DNA from: Candidatus Thorarchaeota archaeon
GTDB lineage: Archaea; Asgardarchaeota; Thorarchaeia; Thorarchaeales; Thorarchaeaceae
Length of the DNA stretch: 64,000 bases
Reading direction: 5' to 3'
NCBI GenBank assembly: GCA_019057475.1
Contig: DXJO01000022.1
Location: 1 to 64,000, forward strand
Under the pieces are notes generated by a model. That model was not told where the DNA came from and made no database searches. It saw only the letters and a list, made by a program, of their open reading frames with translations. Position numbers and translations under genes: made by a program. Position 1 is the stretch's first letter, and each line of letters begins with the position of its first letter. Shown one piece after another: positions 2,427 to 20,780 of this stretch.

Positions 2427-2990
2427 CTAAGACCCTCCGCCGGACGACTGTGTCTCTGCGCTGTGTTCTATCTCTCTTAGATAACTTACAACCTTGCCAT
2501 GGCGTTCGAATGTTGTGGCACTGGATATGGGCCCATATTGAATTGCGCCGGTCGGGCAGACCTTGGCACACTCGGGGTCCCCACCGCAGTGGTCGCACTT
2601 GATGATGCGCATTTCCGTTGTATCCAACAGAATGACTCCATTGACACAGGCACCAACACAGGATTTGCAGAGAATGCACTTGTCATGGTCGAGGAAGACC
2701 ATCTTAGATATAGGATCTCGCCTCATGGCGTATACGGGACACACCTCAACACAGGGGGCCTCCTCACAAGGCCCGCAAACATTAGGTATGTCAATGCCCA
2801 AGTCGTCGTATCGAAGTATCTTGAGCCGAGCTAAGCTTGGCTGAAAGCGGCCTTCGTGTTCTGCGGAACAAGCTAGCTCACAGATTCTGCATCCAGTACA
2901 TTTCGTATAATCAACTGTCAGCTGTGATGGCAGCCACACCACCTCGGGGGAGCGCACTTGCATGTGTTTGTACGCTAAAAGCTTTGGCAA
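2427..2990 (-). CDS. 4Fe-4S dicluster ferredoxin-like subunit of AOR
   Basis: Four Cys-rich CxxCxxCxxxC/CP clusters; 1 nt from aor. Confidence 0.92.
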   Translation of the reverse strand: MPKLLAYKHMQVRSPEVVWLPSQLTVDYTKCTGCRICELACSAEHEGRFQPSLARLKILRYDDLGIDIPNVCGPCEEAPCVEVCPVYAMRRDPISKMVFLDHDKCILCKSCVGACVNGVILLDTTEMRIIKCDHCGGDPECAKVCPTGAIQYGPISSATTFERHGKVVSYLREIEHSAETQSSGGGS

Positions 2991-3054
2991 TCAGCAAATG
3001 TCAGCTGAACAATTTATTAGGCTATCAAGTTGCTAGAAATCCAAGGTATTAACT

Positions 3055-13433: not shown

Positions 13434-14228
13434 ATGGAGAACAGGCTGTTGAAAAAAATCGTTCTTACCAACGATGATGGACCGTATAGTTCGGGGCTAC
13501 TGAAGCTGGCTGACACATTGGCCAAAGACATGGAGCTTATTGTTGTAGTACCAGATAGTCAGCGAAGTGCCACAGGAAAAGCGCTAACGTTCAACAGACC
13601 GATTCGTGTCTATGAACATGGTGAGAAGAATGGCTATCGACTTGTCACTCATGACGGAACCCCTGCAGACTCAGTCCCGCTTGCACAGGAGTTTGTGAAG
13701 GACATAGACATGTTTGTTTCCGGCATTAACTCAGGAGCAAACATTGGGTATCAGAGCATGCTGACCAGTGGCACCGTCGGTGCCGCCTTCGAAGCGGCGA
13801 TGCAGGGCTACCCCGCTCTGGCAACATCTAGAGTCGTAAACCCTCAAGAGTGGTTCAACCCGAGAGACTCCAGACATGAATACGCCAGAGAGTGCGAAAT
13901 AACTCGTGACATTGTCAAATGGGTGTTGAAGAAAGGACTGCCTGAAGGGATCGATGCATTGAATTTGAATTTCCCCTGTGAGATTGACGCCGACACCTCA
14001 ATCATTTACACCAAGCCCACAATCGTTCGTATGAGCAACGATATCGAGCGCAGACTGGATCCCAATGGAAGTCCGTACTACTGGCTTCGTGGCGTGGAGA
14101 AAGAAGCCGCAGAAGGCTCGGACGCGTATGAGGTCATCACCAATGGCAATATCTCACTCTCACCCATTGTGATTGAGAGTGCAAGAAACGAAGATGTCGA
14201 AAATCTTAGAAAATTCATGGTGGATTAA
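13434..14228 (+). CDS. surE: 5'/3'-nucleotidase SurE
   Basis: LTNDDG, GTPADS, SGINSGANIG, SGTVGAA, DPNGSPYYW. Confidence 0.93.
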   Translation: MENRLLKKIVLTNDDGPYSSGLLKLADTLAKDMELIVVVPDSQRSATGKALTFNRPIRVYEHGEKNGYRLVTHDGTPADSVPLAQEFVKDIDMFVSGINSGANIGYQSMLTSGTVGAAFEAAMQGYPALATSRVVNPQEWFNPRDSRHEYARECEITRDIVKWVLKKGLPEGIDALNLNFPCEIDADTSIIYTKPTIVRMSNDIERRLDPNGSPYYWLRGVEKEAAEGSDAYEVITNGNISLSPIVIESARNEDVENLRKFMVD

Positions 14229-15225
14229 CTTTCTTCAGGGCGCTCCACAAAGCATCTGTGGACGGGCGAGCCAACTGCATTGCCGCCCCCTCGGAGTAAA
14301 TTAGACGTTTCTCTTCATCTTCGAGGATGCGACCCAGAATTGTTGCTTGGACATTCTCCGATTCTATTGCTGCTATGACATCATCCACATGGTTGGAATC
14401 GCAAGTCATGAGCATGCATCCACTGCTGATGAGCTCTAGCACGTTCACGTCAATTGCATCGCACAGCAGTTTCGTCGTGTGATGAATGGGTATCCGATCC
14501 AGTTCCACTTCAAAGCCCACTCCACTCGCATCACACAGCTCATGCAAACCGCCAGCCAGTCCTCCTTCTGTTGGATCATGCATCGCAGTCAGATGACCAG
14601 TTTTGAATGCACTTAGTCCCTCAGATACTACACTGATTTGACTCCTTAGCGCTAATGCCTCATCGAGAACGGCTACATCTAGCTCTTTGGAGAGTACTTT
14701 TCGGCCCTCGGCCGCTAATATGGCAGTCCCCTCAATCCCTACAGTCTTTGTCATCACAACTGCATTTCCGGGTTGTGCGCCTGATGAGGTCACATAATCC
14801 CCCTCACTGGTTTCCCCCAGCATGAAGCCTGCTACTATGGGCTTCTCAATACCTTCCGTAATCTCTGTGTGTCCTCCAGCAACGGTTATGCCAAGCGTCT
14901 TTGCGGCGCTATCTATCTGACTCATTATGCGACCCACTTCAGCTGCAGTGCTGCCCACAGGAAGCATGATTGATGTCAGGAACCATCTGGGGGCAACGCC
15001 GAACGTCGCCACATCGTTTGCGTTGATGTGCACTGCAAGCCACCCGATATCCTCAATTGACCCTGTAATTGGGTCTGTGGAAGCAACGATTACTCGGTTC
15101 CCAATCCTAATCAAAGAGGCATCTTGCCCTATTCCAGGACCAAGAATTAAATCTGGGTCACTTCTACCTAAATGTGTGAAAACCAACCGTTCGAGAACAT
15201 CTGGTGGGATCTTGCCAGGGAGCAT
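14215..15225 (-). CDS. AIR synthase-related (PurM/HypE-like) protein
   Basis: GPGIGQDA, STDPITG, NANDV, GGHTE, MHDPTEGG, ISSG. Confidence 0.88.
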   Translation of the reverse strand: MLPGKIPPDVLERLVFTHLGRSDPDLILGPGIGQDASLIRIGNRVIVASTDPITGSIEDIGWLAVHINANDVATFGVAPRWFLTSIMLPVGSTAAEVGRIMSQIDSAAKTLGITVAGGHTEITEGIEKPIVAGFMLGETSEGDYVTSSGAQPGNAVVMTKTVGIEGTAILAAEGRKVLSKELDVAVLDEALALRSQISVVSEGLSAFKTGHLTAMHDPTEGGLAGGLHELCDASGVGFEVELDRIPIHHTTKLLCDAIDVNVLELISSGCMLMTCDSNHVDDVIAAIESENVQATILGRILEDEEKRLIYSEGAAMQLARPSTDALWSALKKVNPP

Positions 15226-15409: not shown

Positions 15410-16903
15410 TCAATGTGACAAGTACGCTTCTGCTTCTACCAAGTCTGAGGCTCTAAAGCGCACCTTTTCGTGGCTTCCCTTGAGAAGCATACCAAGCACC
15501 GAGTCAGTCCGCATTAGCTCCCTTGATAGGTATGCACGTCCGCCTCCAGCGCGAGCAATCAGGTACGCACCGAACGTCTTTCGAAACTCCGGTACGGCCA
15601 ACAATGTTTCCATTGGATTGTTGTGACCCTCCTTTCGCATCCTGAGCATTGTGGCCAGCTCTAGCGCGTCATGGTATGGACGCTTGAGTATCCGAGCCCA
15701 CTGAACCTGTTCGGGATCGACATTGACTGTAGCCAACCGCACATTGGCCTTGCGAAGCATCCGTGAAGCCTTGACCAAATCCCGGACTGGAGTATACTTA
15801 GCTTGACCGGGTCCTACAGATTGAGCAAGGGGAACATTGGGCGCAAAGTCGGATATGATAATCACAAGAGGCTCGATGCTCTCCCTACGCATCCTCTCTC
15901 TCTTGATGGTTTCGAGGGATTTCATTAGCCCTTCAGCCAGAGGCGTAAGGCCTGATACTCTCAATCGGGTGAAACCGCGATAGAGCTTGTTCCAGTTCGA
16001 TGTGGGGGTCTGAACTTCGACTGCCCCGCTATCTTTGAATGCAATTATACCTGCGCGGTCTCTGGACCCTCGAGTTTCACGCTCTATGCGCTCTAGGAGA
16101 TCTCGTACTTGGCTCATACTCCCCTTCATGGACATACTTACGTCGATGACAAGGATGACCGTCAAGGGTATTCTTGCAGTGAAGACTTTCTCCCTGATGT
16201 CGCTCTTGGAGATTACTAGCTTCTGACCAGGCGTTATTCTACCTGTTCTCGCCACAGCTGCAACTACGGTGGAAGGCAAGTGAATGCTACTTGCGTTCTT
16301 CGGCGGTACTCGAAACCTCAAGGAGCGACCGTGTTGTGAGGTTTCAGATGCTTTTAGAGATCCCGCAGACCGAGAGCTGACCCTCTTGTTAACCCACCCG
16401 CCAGAAGAAACCTTTGACCGTTTCATAACCTTGGAACGAAGCTCCCTGGCGTCAAAGATAGCCTCACCACTGGCAAGGTCAGGAATCTTCACAAAGAATC
16501 CTGCATCGATACCGATTGGAGATTCTCTGATTTCAGACTTGAAACCAATGACCTTTGTGGGAGGCTTGAAGCTATAGGGTCGCGTAGCGAAGCCCCATTC
16601 ATCACCCGGTTCAGGAACCCCGTCCCCCGATTCTACAGTATCTATCCCTGCCGCGGGTCCACTCTTCCTTCGCATCATGGTTCGTAGCCAAAGGCGGATT
16701 GTGTAGTAACTGAGGGGAACGAACACAATGGTGTTCAGAATGAAAAGCGGAATCGTTGGGAATGTGCCCAACGGATAGCCTACTAGAAATGAAATCGGGC
16801 TGAAGTATATCCAAGCGAAATACAAAAACACAGTCACCATCATAATAGCACAGATCGTGCCCTTGATGGGGTCACCCCGGGGACGCCTTATTTTCCTCGG
16901 CGT
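15410..16903 (-). CDS. ChlD-like C-terminal part (2 TM + VWA), probably reached by -1 frameshift from upstream AAA+ ORF
   Basis: DIREK...VILVIDVSMSM (MIDAS), GLTPLAEGL, IISD; frame open from the A9 run at 16911-16903 through ATG 16843. Confidence 0.8.
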   Translation of the reverse strand, partial: TPRKIRRPRGDPIKGTICAIMMVTVFLYFAWIYFSPISFLVGYPLGTFPTIPLFILNTIVFVPLSYYTIRLWLRTMMRRKSGPAAGIDTVESGDGVPEPGDEWGFATRPYSFKPPTKVIGFKSEIRESPIGIDAGFFVKIPDLASGEAIFDARELRSKVMKRSKVSSGGWVNKRVSSRSAGSLKASETSQHGRSLRFRVPPKNASSIHLPSTVVAAVARTGRITPGQKLVISKSDIREKVFTARIPLTVILVIDVSMSMKGSMSQVRDLLERIERETRGSRDRAGIIAFKDSGAVEVQTPTSNWNKLYRGFTRLRVSGLTPLAEGLMKSLETIKRERMRRESIEPLVIIISDFAPNVPLAQSVGPGQAKYTPVRDLVKASRMLRKANVRLATVNVDPEQVQWARILKRPYHDALELATMLRMRKEGHNNPMETLLAVPEFRKTFGAYLIARAGGGRAYLSRELMRTDSVLGMLLKGSHEKVRFRASDLVEAEAYLSH

Positions 16904-16911
16904 TTTTTTTT
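16860..16911 (-). other. Putative -1 programmed ribosomal frameshift cassette
   Basis: GGC AAA AAA AAA CGC (A_AAA_AAA heptamer) followed by CGCC...GGCG and GGGG-TGA-CCCC stems. Confidence 0.75.
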
Positions 16912-18126
16912 GCCGTCTCCAGATCCTTTGGTTGCGAAGCTAGATTGTCTGCCGAAACTGCCTCCACTAGAACGACGGCCGGTTTCTTCCTTAGACGGTG
17001 GCACCTCAGTGGGGGATTTGCGCTTATCAGATTTCTGCGTAATATTAACCGCTTTTGTGATGGCTTGATCAATATCCGTGGACGAAGGCGGATCCAACAA
17101 ACCACCCCTTCGGGTTCTGTGACTCAACGTGAGCTGGGACGCTATCTTCATGTCGTCTAGGGCAACTTCCTTGCGCCCTTCAAGGGCGGCGCGAGTGATT
17201 GCTGTCTTGCTAATTATGATGTCTGGTCTGACTCCATCAACTTCAAGGGCGTCGCAGGCCATAGCAATAGCCCTGAGACTGTGCTCCGGCAAGACTACTT
17301 CTTTCAGTATCCCCTTTGCCTGGACAATTCGTTCGCGAAGACTTGCCTGCTCCTCGGACCATTCATGTAGGAATCGTTCCGGATCGATTTCAAAAGAGAG
17401 GTTCCTGCGCACCAAGTCCATCCGTTGCTCAATTGTGAAGTTACTGTCCACTGCAACGTGCAGAGGAAATCTGTCAAGCAGCTGTGGACGCAGTTCTCCC
17501 TCTTCTGGATTCATAGTGCCTATGAGTACAAAGTCTGCTGGGTGTGAGATGGATATACCCTCGCGCTCGATTACGTTGACTTCAGTTGCAGCAGCATCAA
17601 GAAGGTCATCAACCAGATGATCAGGCAGTAGGTTAATCTCGTCAACATAGAGTACATTCTGATGGGCCTCAGCGAGAATCCCAGGCCTGAGTGCTTGAAT
17701 GCCCTCCTGCAGAACCTTTTCGATGTCAAGAGCACCGATCAGTCGATCCTCCGTCGTGGAGAGCGGCAGGTTCACGACTCGCATCTTCCGTTTGTGGGAC
17801 TTCAATTCCTTGCTGGATTTCATGCGTGCTAGGCACTCAGCACATAGGAACTCCTTTCGTGATGGATTGCATCCAAAACGACAATCATCAACCACGTCGA
17901 CCTCAGGCAGTAGGTCTGCCAGGGCTCTCACAACAGTGGTCTTCCCAGTACCTTTTGGTCCTGAGATGAGGACACCTCCTATTCGTGGGTTGACTCCATT
18001 CAGAATTAGAGCTAGCTTGAGATGTTCAAGGCCGACGATGGATGTGAATGGCAAAACAGATCTCTTTAGCTCGCTCACAAGTTTTCCAGTCCAATTTGAT
18101 GCTGCTTGTTGGAAAGTTAAAGACAC
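16888..18126 (-). CDS. ChlI/BchI-like chelatase-type AAA+ ATPase
   Basis: LPFTSIVG, GPKGTGKTT, TEDRLIG, LYVDEINLL, GTMNPEEGELRPQLLDRF. Confidence 0.93.
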   Translation of the reverse strand: MSLTFQQAASNWTGKLVSELKRSVLPFTSIVGLEHLKLALILNGVNPRIGGVLISGPKGTGKTTVVRALADLLPEVDVVDDCRFGCNPSRKEFLCAECLARMKSSKELKSHKRKMRVVNLPLSTTEDRLIGALDIEKVLQEGIQALRPGILAEAHQNVLYVDEINLLPDHLVDDLLDAAATEVNVIEREGISISHPADFVLIGTMNPEEGELRPQLLDRFPLHVAVDSNFTIEQRMDLVRRNLSFEIDPERFLHEWSEEQASLRERIVQAKGILKEVVLPEHSLRAIAMACDALEVDGVRPDIIISKTAITRAALEGRKEVALDDMKIASQLTLSHRTRRGGLLDPPSSTDIDQAITKAVNITQKSDKRKSPTEVPPSKEETGRRSSGGSFGRQSSFATKGSGDGKKKRRGK

Positions 18127-18165
18127 AAATAAGGCTGCGCGTTAACGTAGGTCTGGGTCTATTGA

Positions 18166-19338
18166 GTGATATCACACATCTCACACCTTGAATGCCCCCG
18201 GTGCAGCAGGAAGTATAATGCTGAAAGGACGGCGTCCTATTGCATCTGTGGTTCACCTCTCTTTGCAATCTATGACACGATAGGTGTGAGTGAGGCTGTA
18301 GGACGGGGCGAGTTCCCGTCAAGAGTGAACTCCATGTGGAGATACTCTCAGCTCCTCCCTGTGAAATCGCCATCCTTTATTGTAAGCCTGGGGGAAGGCT
18401 GGACACCACTGAGTCTGTCACGACGACTTGGCCGTCATCTGGGTCTCAAGATATTGAGGATTAAGGATGAAGCCCAAAACCCCACTCTGAGCTTCAAAGA
18501 CCGAGGTCTCTGCGCGGCGATATCAAAGCATCTCGAACTCGGTAGCAATGCATTCGCTCTACCCTCCGCCGGTAACGCGGGAATATCCACAAGCGCATAT
18601 TGTGCGGCTGCAGGAGTACCGGCCCATATCTTCATGCCAACAGAAACCCCAGAAGCATTCTTTCGGGTTTGTGAAACATTTGGAGCGGAAGTTGTCAAGG
18701 TCGACGGCACTATCTCAGACAGCGCGGCTGAGATGAGAAAAAGAAACGGTGACTGGATGGACCTTTCAACAACAAAGGAACCCTATCGTGTTGAGGGAAA
18801 GAAGACATTGGGCTTCGAAATCGCTGAACAACTGGGATGGAAAATGCCTGACGTAATTATCTGTCCGACAGGAGGAGGAACCGCCCTGATTGCCATTTGG
18901 AAGGCGTTCGATGAACTCGAAGCCATTGGATTGGTGGGAAACGAAAGACCACGCATGTATGCCGCACAGAGCGGCGCATGCGCACCGGTAGTACGGGCTG
19001 TTGAAAGAAACGCAGAAGAGATTGAACCATGGCCCAATGGGAACACAATTGCCTATGGTCTTAGGGTTCCAAGCCCTTTTGCGGGGCATCTATTACTCAA
19101 TACAATTAGGCGCTCCGGAGGCAGTGCAGTCGCTGTTGCTGAACAGGAGATTGAACCAAGCCGCAGAATGGCGGCACTGATGGAAGGTCTGGAGATATGC
19201 CCAGAGGCGGCTGTTGGACTAGCAGGTCTCCGAAACTTGATTGAATCGGGAGAAATCGACTACTCTGAGGACATCGTGCTTCTGAACACCGGTTCCGGTG
19301 CTCGATATCCCTTCACGAAAACCAATCTGAACCATTAA
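18166..19338 (+). CDS. thrC: Threonine synthase (PLP, fold type II)
   Basis: SLGEGWTPL, NPTLSFKDRG, SAGNAG, EGKKTLGFEI, PTGGG, LNTGSG. Confidence 0.9.
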   Translation: MISHISHLECPRCSRKYNAERTASYCICGSPLFAIYDTIGVSEAVGRGEFPSRVNSMWRYSQLLPVKSPSFIVSLGEGWTPLSLSRRLGRHLGLKILRIKDEAQNPTLSFKDRGLCAAISKHLELGSNAFALPSAGNAGISTSAYCAAAGVPAHIFMPTETPEAFFRVCETFGAEVVKVDGTISDSAAEMRKRNGDWMDLSTTKEPYRVEGKKTLGFEIAEQLGWKMPDVIICPTGGGTALIAIWKAFDELEAIGLVGNERPRMYAAQSGACAPVVRAVERNAEEIEPWPNGNTIAYGLRVPSPFAGHLLLNTIRRSGGSAVAVAEQEIEPSRRMAALMEGLEICPEAAVGLAGLRNLIESGEIDYSEDIVLLNTGSGARYPFTKTNLNH

Positions 19339-20009: not shown

Positions 20010-20669
20010 TTAGCTCTCAGCTTCACGCTCTCGTTCCTCACGGGCTTCCCTTTCCAGGTTGGCCAGAAGATCGTCGATCCGCTTCTCTTCAGACTTGCCT
20101 TTCTCACTGGAGATTGCTTCTCCCTTCGTTCGAAGTGGTGGCAGAACACCCTCTTTCTCCAGCAAGATTTCCGCTTCCATAGAATCAAGCTGGCGGTCAA
20201 TTCGCTCTTCTGCTTCTACTGAAGCCCCTGTTGTGGAAAGGTCCTCCGACAACAGCTCCCCGGCAATAGTTATGTGTTCGAAAGATTCTGATAGCTTATC
20301 AAGCTGCGTCTGAATCTCGATTGGAGTCAGAAGAGTCCGTGCCTCCATCAACGCTTCGTTTGCAATGCCGAATGCTCGCAGAACCTCAGCCTGATCTCTT
20401 GCCTCCTCAATATTTAGGAGTGCAGTTTCGAGGGTGAGAAACTGCTGCTGATAACGCCCCTTGCGATTCTCAAGGTCGACAACTATGCTCAGGTGTGATC
20501 TTGCAGATGTACGGTCGCCCTTTGCCATGGCTTCCTTCGCAGATTTTTGTTCCTCAGTCATTCTTGTTTCGAGACGTCGAACTCTAAGTGTCAGAGCATT
20601 CATTGTGCCCTTCATCTCAAGCATTCCGCGCTCAGCATCAACTTTCTTCTTGCCGCTCAGAAAACCCAT
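20010..20669 (-). CDS. ESCRT-III/Snf7-family protein (Vps20/32/60-like)
   Basis: Likely start MGFLSGKKK; helical core AKEAMAKGDRTSAR...LETALLNIEEARDQAEVLRAF...ANEAL; acidic C-terminus with LPPL and terminal helix. Confidence 0.82.
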   Translation of the reverse strand: MGFLSGKKKVDAERGMLEMKGTMNALTLRVRRLETRMTEEQKSAKEAMAKGDRTSARSHLSIVVDLENRKGRYQQQFLTLETALLNIEEARDQAEVLRAFGIANEALMEARTLLTPIEIQTQLDKLSESFEHITIAGELLSEDLSTTGASVEAEERIDRQLDSMEAEILLEKEGVLPPLRTKGEAISSEKGKSEEKRIDDLLANLEREAREEREREAES

Positions 20670-20780
20670 AGTATACACCGATGTTGGCCTTTCACAGTAA
20701 CTTGCCTTATAACGCCATTTAACCATTACGGGCAGATAGTATTATAGATAGTCATTCCTTCAAAGACATGAGAAGATACT

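Follow-up and report, generated by a model that had tools for sequence, protein, structure and literature searches.

A chlD-type gene of Thorarchaeota, very probably recoded at a conserved poly-A run, encoding a soluble AAA+ ATPase and a predicted membrane-anchored AAA+-VWA protein

Recoding at poly-A or A_AAA_AAR sites has been published for 'magnesium chelatase' (chlD) genes, among them archaeal ones of Methanocaldococcus and Methanococcus, and in E. coli reporters such A-run-containing Mg-chelatase genes gave 10%, 40% and 63% frameshifting for 7, 9 and 11 A's, respectively (Antonov et al. 2013 NAR, PMC3711429; Atkins et al. 2016 review, PMC5009743). Frameshifted chlD genes (fs-chlD) also occur in organisms without cobN/chlH and without B12 or chlorophyll pathways, such as Spirochaeta thermophila and Brevefilum fermentans, where their function was stated to be unknown (Kuznetsov, Milenkin and Antonov 2022, PMC9227772). 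In class I chelatases the adaptor (ChlD/CobT) engages an AAA+ hexamer (ChlI/CobS), and cryo-EM preprints on CobST and CobSTN place the VWA domain of the adaptor at the ring, while its other face binds the large subunit (10.64898/2026.10.09.757910; 10.64898/2026.07.21.739949). Here we describe two minus-strand open reading frames (ORFs) at positions 15410-18126 of a 64,000-nt stretch of Candidatus Thorarchaeota DNA (the window, to which all coordinates refer). Very probably the two ORFs belong to a single chlD-type gene with a run of nine A's (A9) as its recoding site, and this gene would encode a soluble ATPase of ~412 amino acids (aa) and a ~905-aa protein composed of the AAA+ module, a transmembrane (TM) hairpin and a VWA domain.

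Like the fs-chlD genes, the locus consists of a ChlI-type AAA+ ORF followed by a ChlD-type VWA part in the -1 frame, with a conserved poly-A or A_AAA_AAR site at the overlap. The small subunit would arise by standard decoding and the medium one by the shift, and in-frame fused homologues exist. It differs from them in its Thorarchaeota (Asgard) host, in a two-helix membrane hairpin where ChlD has an acidic/proline linker, in the lack of a conserved downstream RNA structure, which is usual though not obligatory in fs-chlD, and in the absence of CobN from the whole family as sampled. The recoding mechanism at poly-A in chlD, which the original prediction for this stretch had mentioned and which the three sources cited above document, is thus not new; the membrane-anchor variant and the Asgard lineage are additions to a known device. 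In a literature search we found no description of a membrane-anchored ChlD, of a hairpin in the ChlD linker or of its Asgard/Bathyarchaeota clade, and no paper on recoding by transcriptional slippage in Asgard archaea.

The features of the locus are listed in Table 1. The AAA+ ORF ends in a Ser/Lys-rich disordered tail, encoded on the minus strand by GGC AAA AAA AAA CGC CGA GGA AAA TAA, and its stop codon (16888..16890) lies 12 nt past the A9 run. Relative to the AAA+ frame, the VWA ORF lies in -1; its frame opens at 16939, past a TAG (16940..16942), 28 nt ahead of the run, and reads TPRKIRRPRGDPIKGTICAI-MMV into the VWA ORF. Neither ATG nor GTG or TTG was found in this frame between the TAG and ATG 16843. 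Read on the minus strand, the end of the AAA+ ORF, the run and the TAG-opened -1 frame without a start codon had all been described accurately by the original prediction. The start of the AAA+ ORF, within window 18040-18175 on the minus strand, is uncertain, as GTG 18126 is just 39 nt away from a divergent threonine synthase-like gene and an alternative GTG is present at 18078. In L003, a 95%-identical allele, codon 7 of the AAA+ ORF is a stop, and translation may therefore actually begin at the GTG further downstream (about 18078).

Table 1. Positions of the features of the recoded chlD-type locus in the window
Feature	Position	Strand	Basis
Zero-frame ORF, ChlI-type AAA+ ATPase, 412 aa from GTG 18126	16888..18126	-	Pfam/NCBIfam, phmmer, fold match
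A9 run, putative recoding site (T9 on the + strand)	16903..16911	-	KKK in zero frame; contains heptamer A_AAA_AAA
Junction segment in the -1 frame, TPRKIRRPRGDPIKGTICAI; annotated as intergenic	16844..16902	-	Protein-coding selection
Predicted membrane hairpin (TM1, short loop, TM2)	16694..16861	-	Hydropathy, AlphaFold model, conservation
-1-frame ORF, 477 aa from the conserved Met: TM hairpin, conserved juxtamembrane segment, ChlD-type pre-VWA region, VWA, C-terminal helical region	15410..16843	-	Domain searches and model
VWA domain with intact metal ion-dependent adhesion site (MIDAS)	15701..16159	-	Pfam VWA_2/VWA; invariant columns in 17 orthologues

Orthologues were identified in 21 of the 24 other genomes of the same family, representing 16 genera. 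In 19 of these 21 genomes the AAA+ part is followed by the VWA part in the -1 frame, with the break at an A9 or A10 run; in the other two (L003 and L018) the gene is in-frame, with A10 in a context (GGC-A10-CG) of the kind that surrounds A9 in the -1 genomes. A metagenome scan that was seeded on VWA-domain peptides, and was blind to the run, added 41 loci, and after removal of duplicates 54 distinct junctions from Thorarchaeota genomes and metagenomes were available. A -1 shift at the A-run is needed in 50 of them (38 with A9, nine with A10, two with A11 and one with A7), three are in-frame (two with A10, one with A11) and one needs a +1 shift; all except one, which has an A7 heptamer, possess a run of 9-11 A's. 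The in-frame alleles carry one extra A compared to relatives with the same flanks (L003/L032, L044 and, judged by its GGC-A10-CG context, L018). The -1 state is held in at least six configurations of run and phase (A9 in phases 0 and 2, A10 in phases 0, 1 and 2, and A11 in phase 0), and the survival of the offset through changes of both suggests that selection acts on the offset, which would then be neither inherited spacing nor error. In some genomes a TAA of the -1 frame overlaps the first two A's of the run (GGT AAA...), indicating that the shift must happen inside the run. In-frame fused homologues comprise L003 (898 aa), L018 (893 aa), P0001 (880 aa) and further distant proteins of 800-1060 aa. 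As to whether orthologues would keep the run and the offset, a check proposed along with the original prediction, both are kept, and fusion among the 54 junctions is confined to the three alleles with the extra A.

Some individual junctions deserve mention. In L035 (WJMJ01000071, Promethearchaeota RBin_111; junction at about 2930-3000) the long run is interrupted (GGG AAA AAG AAA CAG) and just CCA AAA AAA TAA is retained, a 7-A heptamer followed immediately by the zero-frame stop, with the -1 shift still needed; L006 (G014) has A9 as well as the L035-type A7. L051 (Ga0224495_10000237; junction at about 1700-1800) carries A9, and its AAA+ frame is off by one base just ahead of the run (GAG GCA AAA... 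versus GAA GGC AAA...); the resulting +1/-2 position of the VWA frame reflects either an assembly error or an allele that is rescued only by a 1-nt deletion in the transcript. The VWA part of L008 (G007:C5:6671-8098) contains one internal TAA and may be a pseudogene or an assembly error, the same-genus sister L011 being intact.

The junction itself bears the marks of a coding region. In all genomes the 42 nt ahead of the putative start Met encode ..NPRGDPIKGTICAI.. in the VWA frame, and the entropy by codon position in that frame was 0.54/0.38/1.58 (17 genomes), so that most variation falls on the third position; ATG, GTG and TTG are absent from the pre-Met stretch at most loci. Together, the third-position variation and the usual lack of a start codon indicate that the junction is translated and that the two ORFs are a single recoded gene. 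A/T runs of at least nine occur just eight times in the 3.34-Mb genome, and the A9 run of this locus is the only one joining two long ORFs, which argues against a chance feature. Lysine is preferentially encoded by AAG in long ORFs (66% of cases), and the nearest in-frame outgroup spells the same KKK as AAG AAG AAA. These sequence comparisons suggest that the homopolymer itself is under selection. The only other A/T run of at least nine inside a long open frame of this genome is an A10 at C32:617-626; about 57 codons of a single ~560-codon open frame precede this A10, which may be another coding site prone to slippage.

The domain content of both ORFs is that of a chlD gene. The AAA+ ORF matches Pfam Mg_chelatase, AAA_5 and AAA_lid_2, NCBIfam TIGR02442 'putative cobaltochelatase' over profile positions 2-342 (E 2e-135) and TIGR02030 (E 1e-115), and, by phmmer, Synechocystis ChlI 6l8d (E 1e-95); its predicted fold reaches a target-normalised TM score of 0.86-0.91 against BchI/ChlI. 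No variation is seen in the GPKGTGKT motif, the VDE of Walker B or the conserved Arg columns. The MoxR-type models Pfam AAA_3 (19.1 bits) and bpMoxR (23.8 bits) remained under the cut-off of 27, whereas Mg_chelatase and AAA_5 scored above theirs. The VWA ORF matches Pfam VWA_2 and covers positions 401-621 of TIGR02442 and 319-566 of TIGR02031; thus, the two ORFs correspond to the N- and C-terminal parts of TIGR02442 and together cover a full-length chlD. The solved chain nearest to the VWA part is the BchD VWA domain of 2x31, and of the MIDAS residues D234, S236, S238 and D332 are invariant in the 17 orthologues, while Thr300 is replaced by Ser in two genomes.

Between the two domains, hydropathy places TM1 at about GTICAI-MMVTVFLYFAWIYFSPISFLVGY, with the first helix beginning at the Met, and TM2 at IPLFILNTIVFVPLSYYTI, the two being connected by a short loop; the juxtamembrane segment (..WLRTM..RKSGPAAGIDTVE..GDEWG..) is strongly conserved. 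An AlphaFold model was made for the natural in-frame allele L003, which is 94-95% identical, using an alignment of 20 fused relatives. In this model a confident AAA+ module (about residues 20-361) is followed by a Ser/Lys-rich disordered linker (362-415) that holds the shift site, by long helices at 413-441 and 452-479 that match both hydrophobic segments, and, past the hairpin, by a second disordered stretch, the pre-VWA region, the VWA domain and the C-terminal helical region. Two TM helices after the shift site, in place of the acidic/Pro linker, had been proposed before and are present by both hydropathy and modeling. Basic residues occur on both sides of the hairpin and, taken together with the short connecting loop, suggest that the hairpin is likely to be inserted in-out-in, with the AAA+ and the VWA parts both residing in the cytoplasm. 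The AAA+ module further contains an insertion (window 17850-17910, minus strand; residues about 73-92, DDCRFGCNPSRKEFLCAEC) with four Cys residues (C75, C79, C88 and C91 in L003 numbering) that are invariant in 20 TM-form relatives; the aligned segment of Synechocystis ChlI is devoid of Cys. This insertion may form a zinc-binding knuckle.

The scheme considered most probable is as follows. Standard decoding would end 12 nt past the run and give rise to the ~412-aa soluble ChlI-like AAA+ ATPase, while a minority of products would enter the -1 frame, either by the ribosome moving back one base on A_AAA_AAA or by RNA polymerase adding one A. Both routes would yield an identical ~905-aa protein, ..GKKK-TPRKIRRPRGDP.., equal to the junction of the in-frame allele L003, and the trans-frame junction peptide would be ..KKKTPRKIRRPRGDPIK.. 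(also ..GKKKTPRKIRRPRGDPIK..). In the long form, the same AAA+ module would be joined, through the disordered linker and the two-helix hairpin in the membrane, to a ChlD-type VWA domain that faces the cytoplasm and has its MIDAS intact. In analogy to ChlI/ChlD and CobS/CobT, the ATPase ring would be composed of the short product, and the long product would be a membrane-tethered adaptor that docks on this ring and holds a client through its VWA domain and MIDAS; the length of the run would set the ratio of short to long product. The genome possesses a single ChlI-type gene, implying that I-like and D-like subunits both originate from this locus. That one gene gives a soluble ATPase of ~410 aa and a membrane form of ~900 aa, as originally predicted, is strongly supported by the 54 distinct orthologous junctions.

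Some observations weigh against a single gene recoded during expression, and they are best considered along with the explanations that they would favor. Every genome has a Met where TM1 begins, in either of two neighbouring alignment columns, and public annotations list the VWA part on its own, with a length of 477-534 aa, as would be expected for two ordinary adjacent genes, with the TM-VWA protein initiating at ATG 16843 and the A-run being a mere Lys tract. Some independent initiation of the TM-VWA protein at the conserved Met may occur, but internal initiation cannot account for the coding constraint upstream of it. Since the periodicity in the VWA frame reaches into a stretch that lacks a start codon in most genomes, no purine-rich ribosome-binding motif is found 5-10 nt ahead of ATG 16843, KKK is always a pure A-run against codon preference, the -1 offset recurs in 50 of 54 junctions across six run/phase configurations, and fused relatives exist, we consider two separate genes to be very improbable. 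The three in-frame alleles and the single +1 allele demonstrate that the run length changes at the DNA level, and the extra A of the in-frame alleles relative to their same-flank relatives (probably including L018) would be in line with phase variation, in which replication slippage would toggle the run between an A9 state with the short product alone and an A10 state with the long product alone, and no slippage would occur during expression. Yet the states are far from balanced (50 -1, three in-frame and one +1), the -1 state is restored in differing run/phase configurations, the VWA ORF is under strong purifying selection in the -1 state, unlike what is expected for an off state, and an always-fused form would lack a partner, as the genome has no chlI gene besides this one; phase variation as the sole explanation is accordingly given little credence. 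Least probable of all is that the gene is a decaying pseudogene or that the homopolymer was missequenced or misassembled. Homopolymers are error-prone, the window as well as the named related records come from metagenome assemblies, and the L008 orthologue (G007) has its internal TAA, but contigs from many different metagenome and genome assemblies agree, the offset is kept while run length and phase vary, and both halves are highly conserved. Distant relatives also have one in-frame gene and no separate chlI (at least one, G035, has the fused gene only), suggesting that the protein class does not generally need the short product, which would be an addition in this Thorarchaeota family. Finally, efficient ribosomal frameshifting usually involves a downstream RNA structure, none of which is conserved here.

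The latter point bears on the route by which the recoded gene would be expressed, either ribosomal or transcriptional slippage at A9. A strictly ribosomal -1 frameshift on A_AAA_AAA that is stimulated by downstream GC-rich stems appears possible but rather doubtful. The heptamer is present in the correct phase in all configurations; L035 has lost the long run and kept the 7-A heptamer with the zero-frame stop directly after it, and A_AAA_AAR is the published shift site of the chlD gene family (PMC5009743). However, RNAalifold on the 17 orthologues found 0 consensus base pairs 3' of the run and the local single-sequence fold was no better than that of shuffles (z -0.15), so that the GC-rich stems noted in the original prediction do not stand as a conserved feature. 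At least nine A's occur in 53 of the 54 junctions although the ribosome needs only seven, and the two extra A's never vary. L051 would require a +1/-2 shift, which transcripts lacking one A would provide, unlike a -1 slip of the ribosome. Moreover, the published efficiency climbs with the length of the run, as is expected if polymerase slippage contributes (PMC3711429).

To place the long product among its relatives, a full HMMER search of 1.8 billion representatives was used, which returned 1631 matches, while a word-based search gave just nine proteins. Among the best 150 of the 1631 matches are some 25 or more single-ORF proteins of about 740-1060 aa with Walker A and with 1-7, mostly 2, hydrophobic helices between the AAA+ and VWA domains. 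The named TM-form relatives belong to Thorarchaeota, Promethearchaeota, Hodarchaeota and Bathyarchaeota, and their annotation goes no further than 'AAA family ATPase' or 'VWA domain-containing protein'. The two-helix hairpin is common to the in-frame relatives in Asgard and Bathyarchaeota, and the distant TM-forms whose DNA could be read are in-frame and lack an A-run where the two parts join; thus, within the TM clade, the recoding site is specific to this family of Thorarchaeota.

A search for CobN/ChlH (PF02514) was negative in all 25 family genomes, which include the 96%-complete genome of the window, while control genomes were positive. In other Asgard genomes PF02514 adjoins chlD genes without TM helices, and such TM-less genes (L025, L029) carry the acidic/Pro linker. 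The original prediction had noted the lack of cobN/chlH in the window and had favored a membrane remodelling chaperone over a chelatase. The lack holds for the window and extends to the genome, and the view that this is not a classical chelatase has support from the 25 genomes: the client is probably not a tetrapyrrole-binding chelatase subunit, and tetrapyrrole metalation by the classical route is unlikely. The membrane remodelling role has no specific support. Tentatively, it might be speculated that the membrane-tethered ChlI/ChlD-like pair is a non-chelatase AAA+-VWA machine of Asgard archaea and Bathyarchaeota which acts on a membrane-associated non-tetrapyrrole client, its subunit ratio being set mainly by RNA-polymerase slippage on A9.

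Other described systems share parts of this arrangement. With ChlI/ChlD and CobS/CobT the locus has in common the ChlI-type AAA+ fold and the MIDAS-bearing VWA adaptor, and the same logic of ring, adaptor and client is expected; in contrast to them, there is no CobN/ChlH client, the adaptor would be tethered to the membrane and not soluble with an acidic/proline linker, and its AAA+ module is identical to that of the motor, both coming from one gene. A further parallel is dnaX, which gives rise to tau and gamma and in Thermus thermophilus involves transcriptional slippage on A9 (summarised in PMC3711429). Here as in dnaX, one gene has long and short products that share the AAA+ N-terminus, slippage, ribosomal or by RNA polymerase, takes place on an A-run, and the product ratio is thought to serve the stoichiometry of a complex; unlike in dnaX, where the shift yields the short product, it would yield the long one here, and the protein families are unrelated. 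MoxR-type AAA+ proteins are also found with VWA partners (BatA/BatB-like, CoxD/CoxE and NorQ/NorD systems; for CoxD, PMC3471820), some of these partners being membrane-anchored. These systems share with the present locus the coupling of an AAA+ ATPase to a VWA adaptor that has a MIDAS and acts on a protein client, in some cases at the membrane; the present locus differs in that its ATPase is of the ChlI and not the MoxR type.

With regard to genomic context, the gene order threonine synthase-like, AAA+, VWA, PurM-superfamily (AIRS-like) and SurE is kept in 21 family genomes. The PurM-superfamily (AIR synthase-related) gene at window 14215-15225 is located about 185 nt downstream on the same minus strand, with synteny kept in all 21 genomes; its scores for HypE, ThiL and SelD all fall short of the respective cut-offs, and it was not found beside the distant TM-form relatives, whose identifiable neighbours belong to other families (Fer4, radical SAM, DUF998) or have no Pfam match. 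No functional link to the neighbours was deduced. A protein of the Snf7/ESCRT-III family is encoded three genes upstream (window 20010-20726, minus strand; Pfam Snf7, E 4e-14). A scan for bacterial promoters and terminators, which is ill-suited to archaea, gave nothing above shuffles.

For annotation, the findings mean that the 'AAA family ATPase' and 'VWA domain-containing protein' records are to be joined as one recoded chlD-like gene, by which an Asgard lineage is added to a recoding device spread over bacteria and archaea. The natural series of A7, A9, A10 and A11 alleles, together with the three in-frame alleles and the +1 allele, offers clean material for the question of ribosome versus RNA polymerase in archaea. 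The hairpin and the lack of CobN in the sampled family sharpen the question posed by Kuznetsov et al. (2022; PMC9227772) as to the role of ChlI/ChlD complexes without the large subunit, and an adaptor that is fixed at the membrane, as proposed here, would narrow the search for its client.

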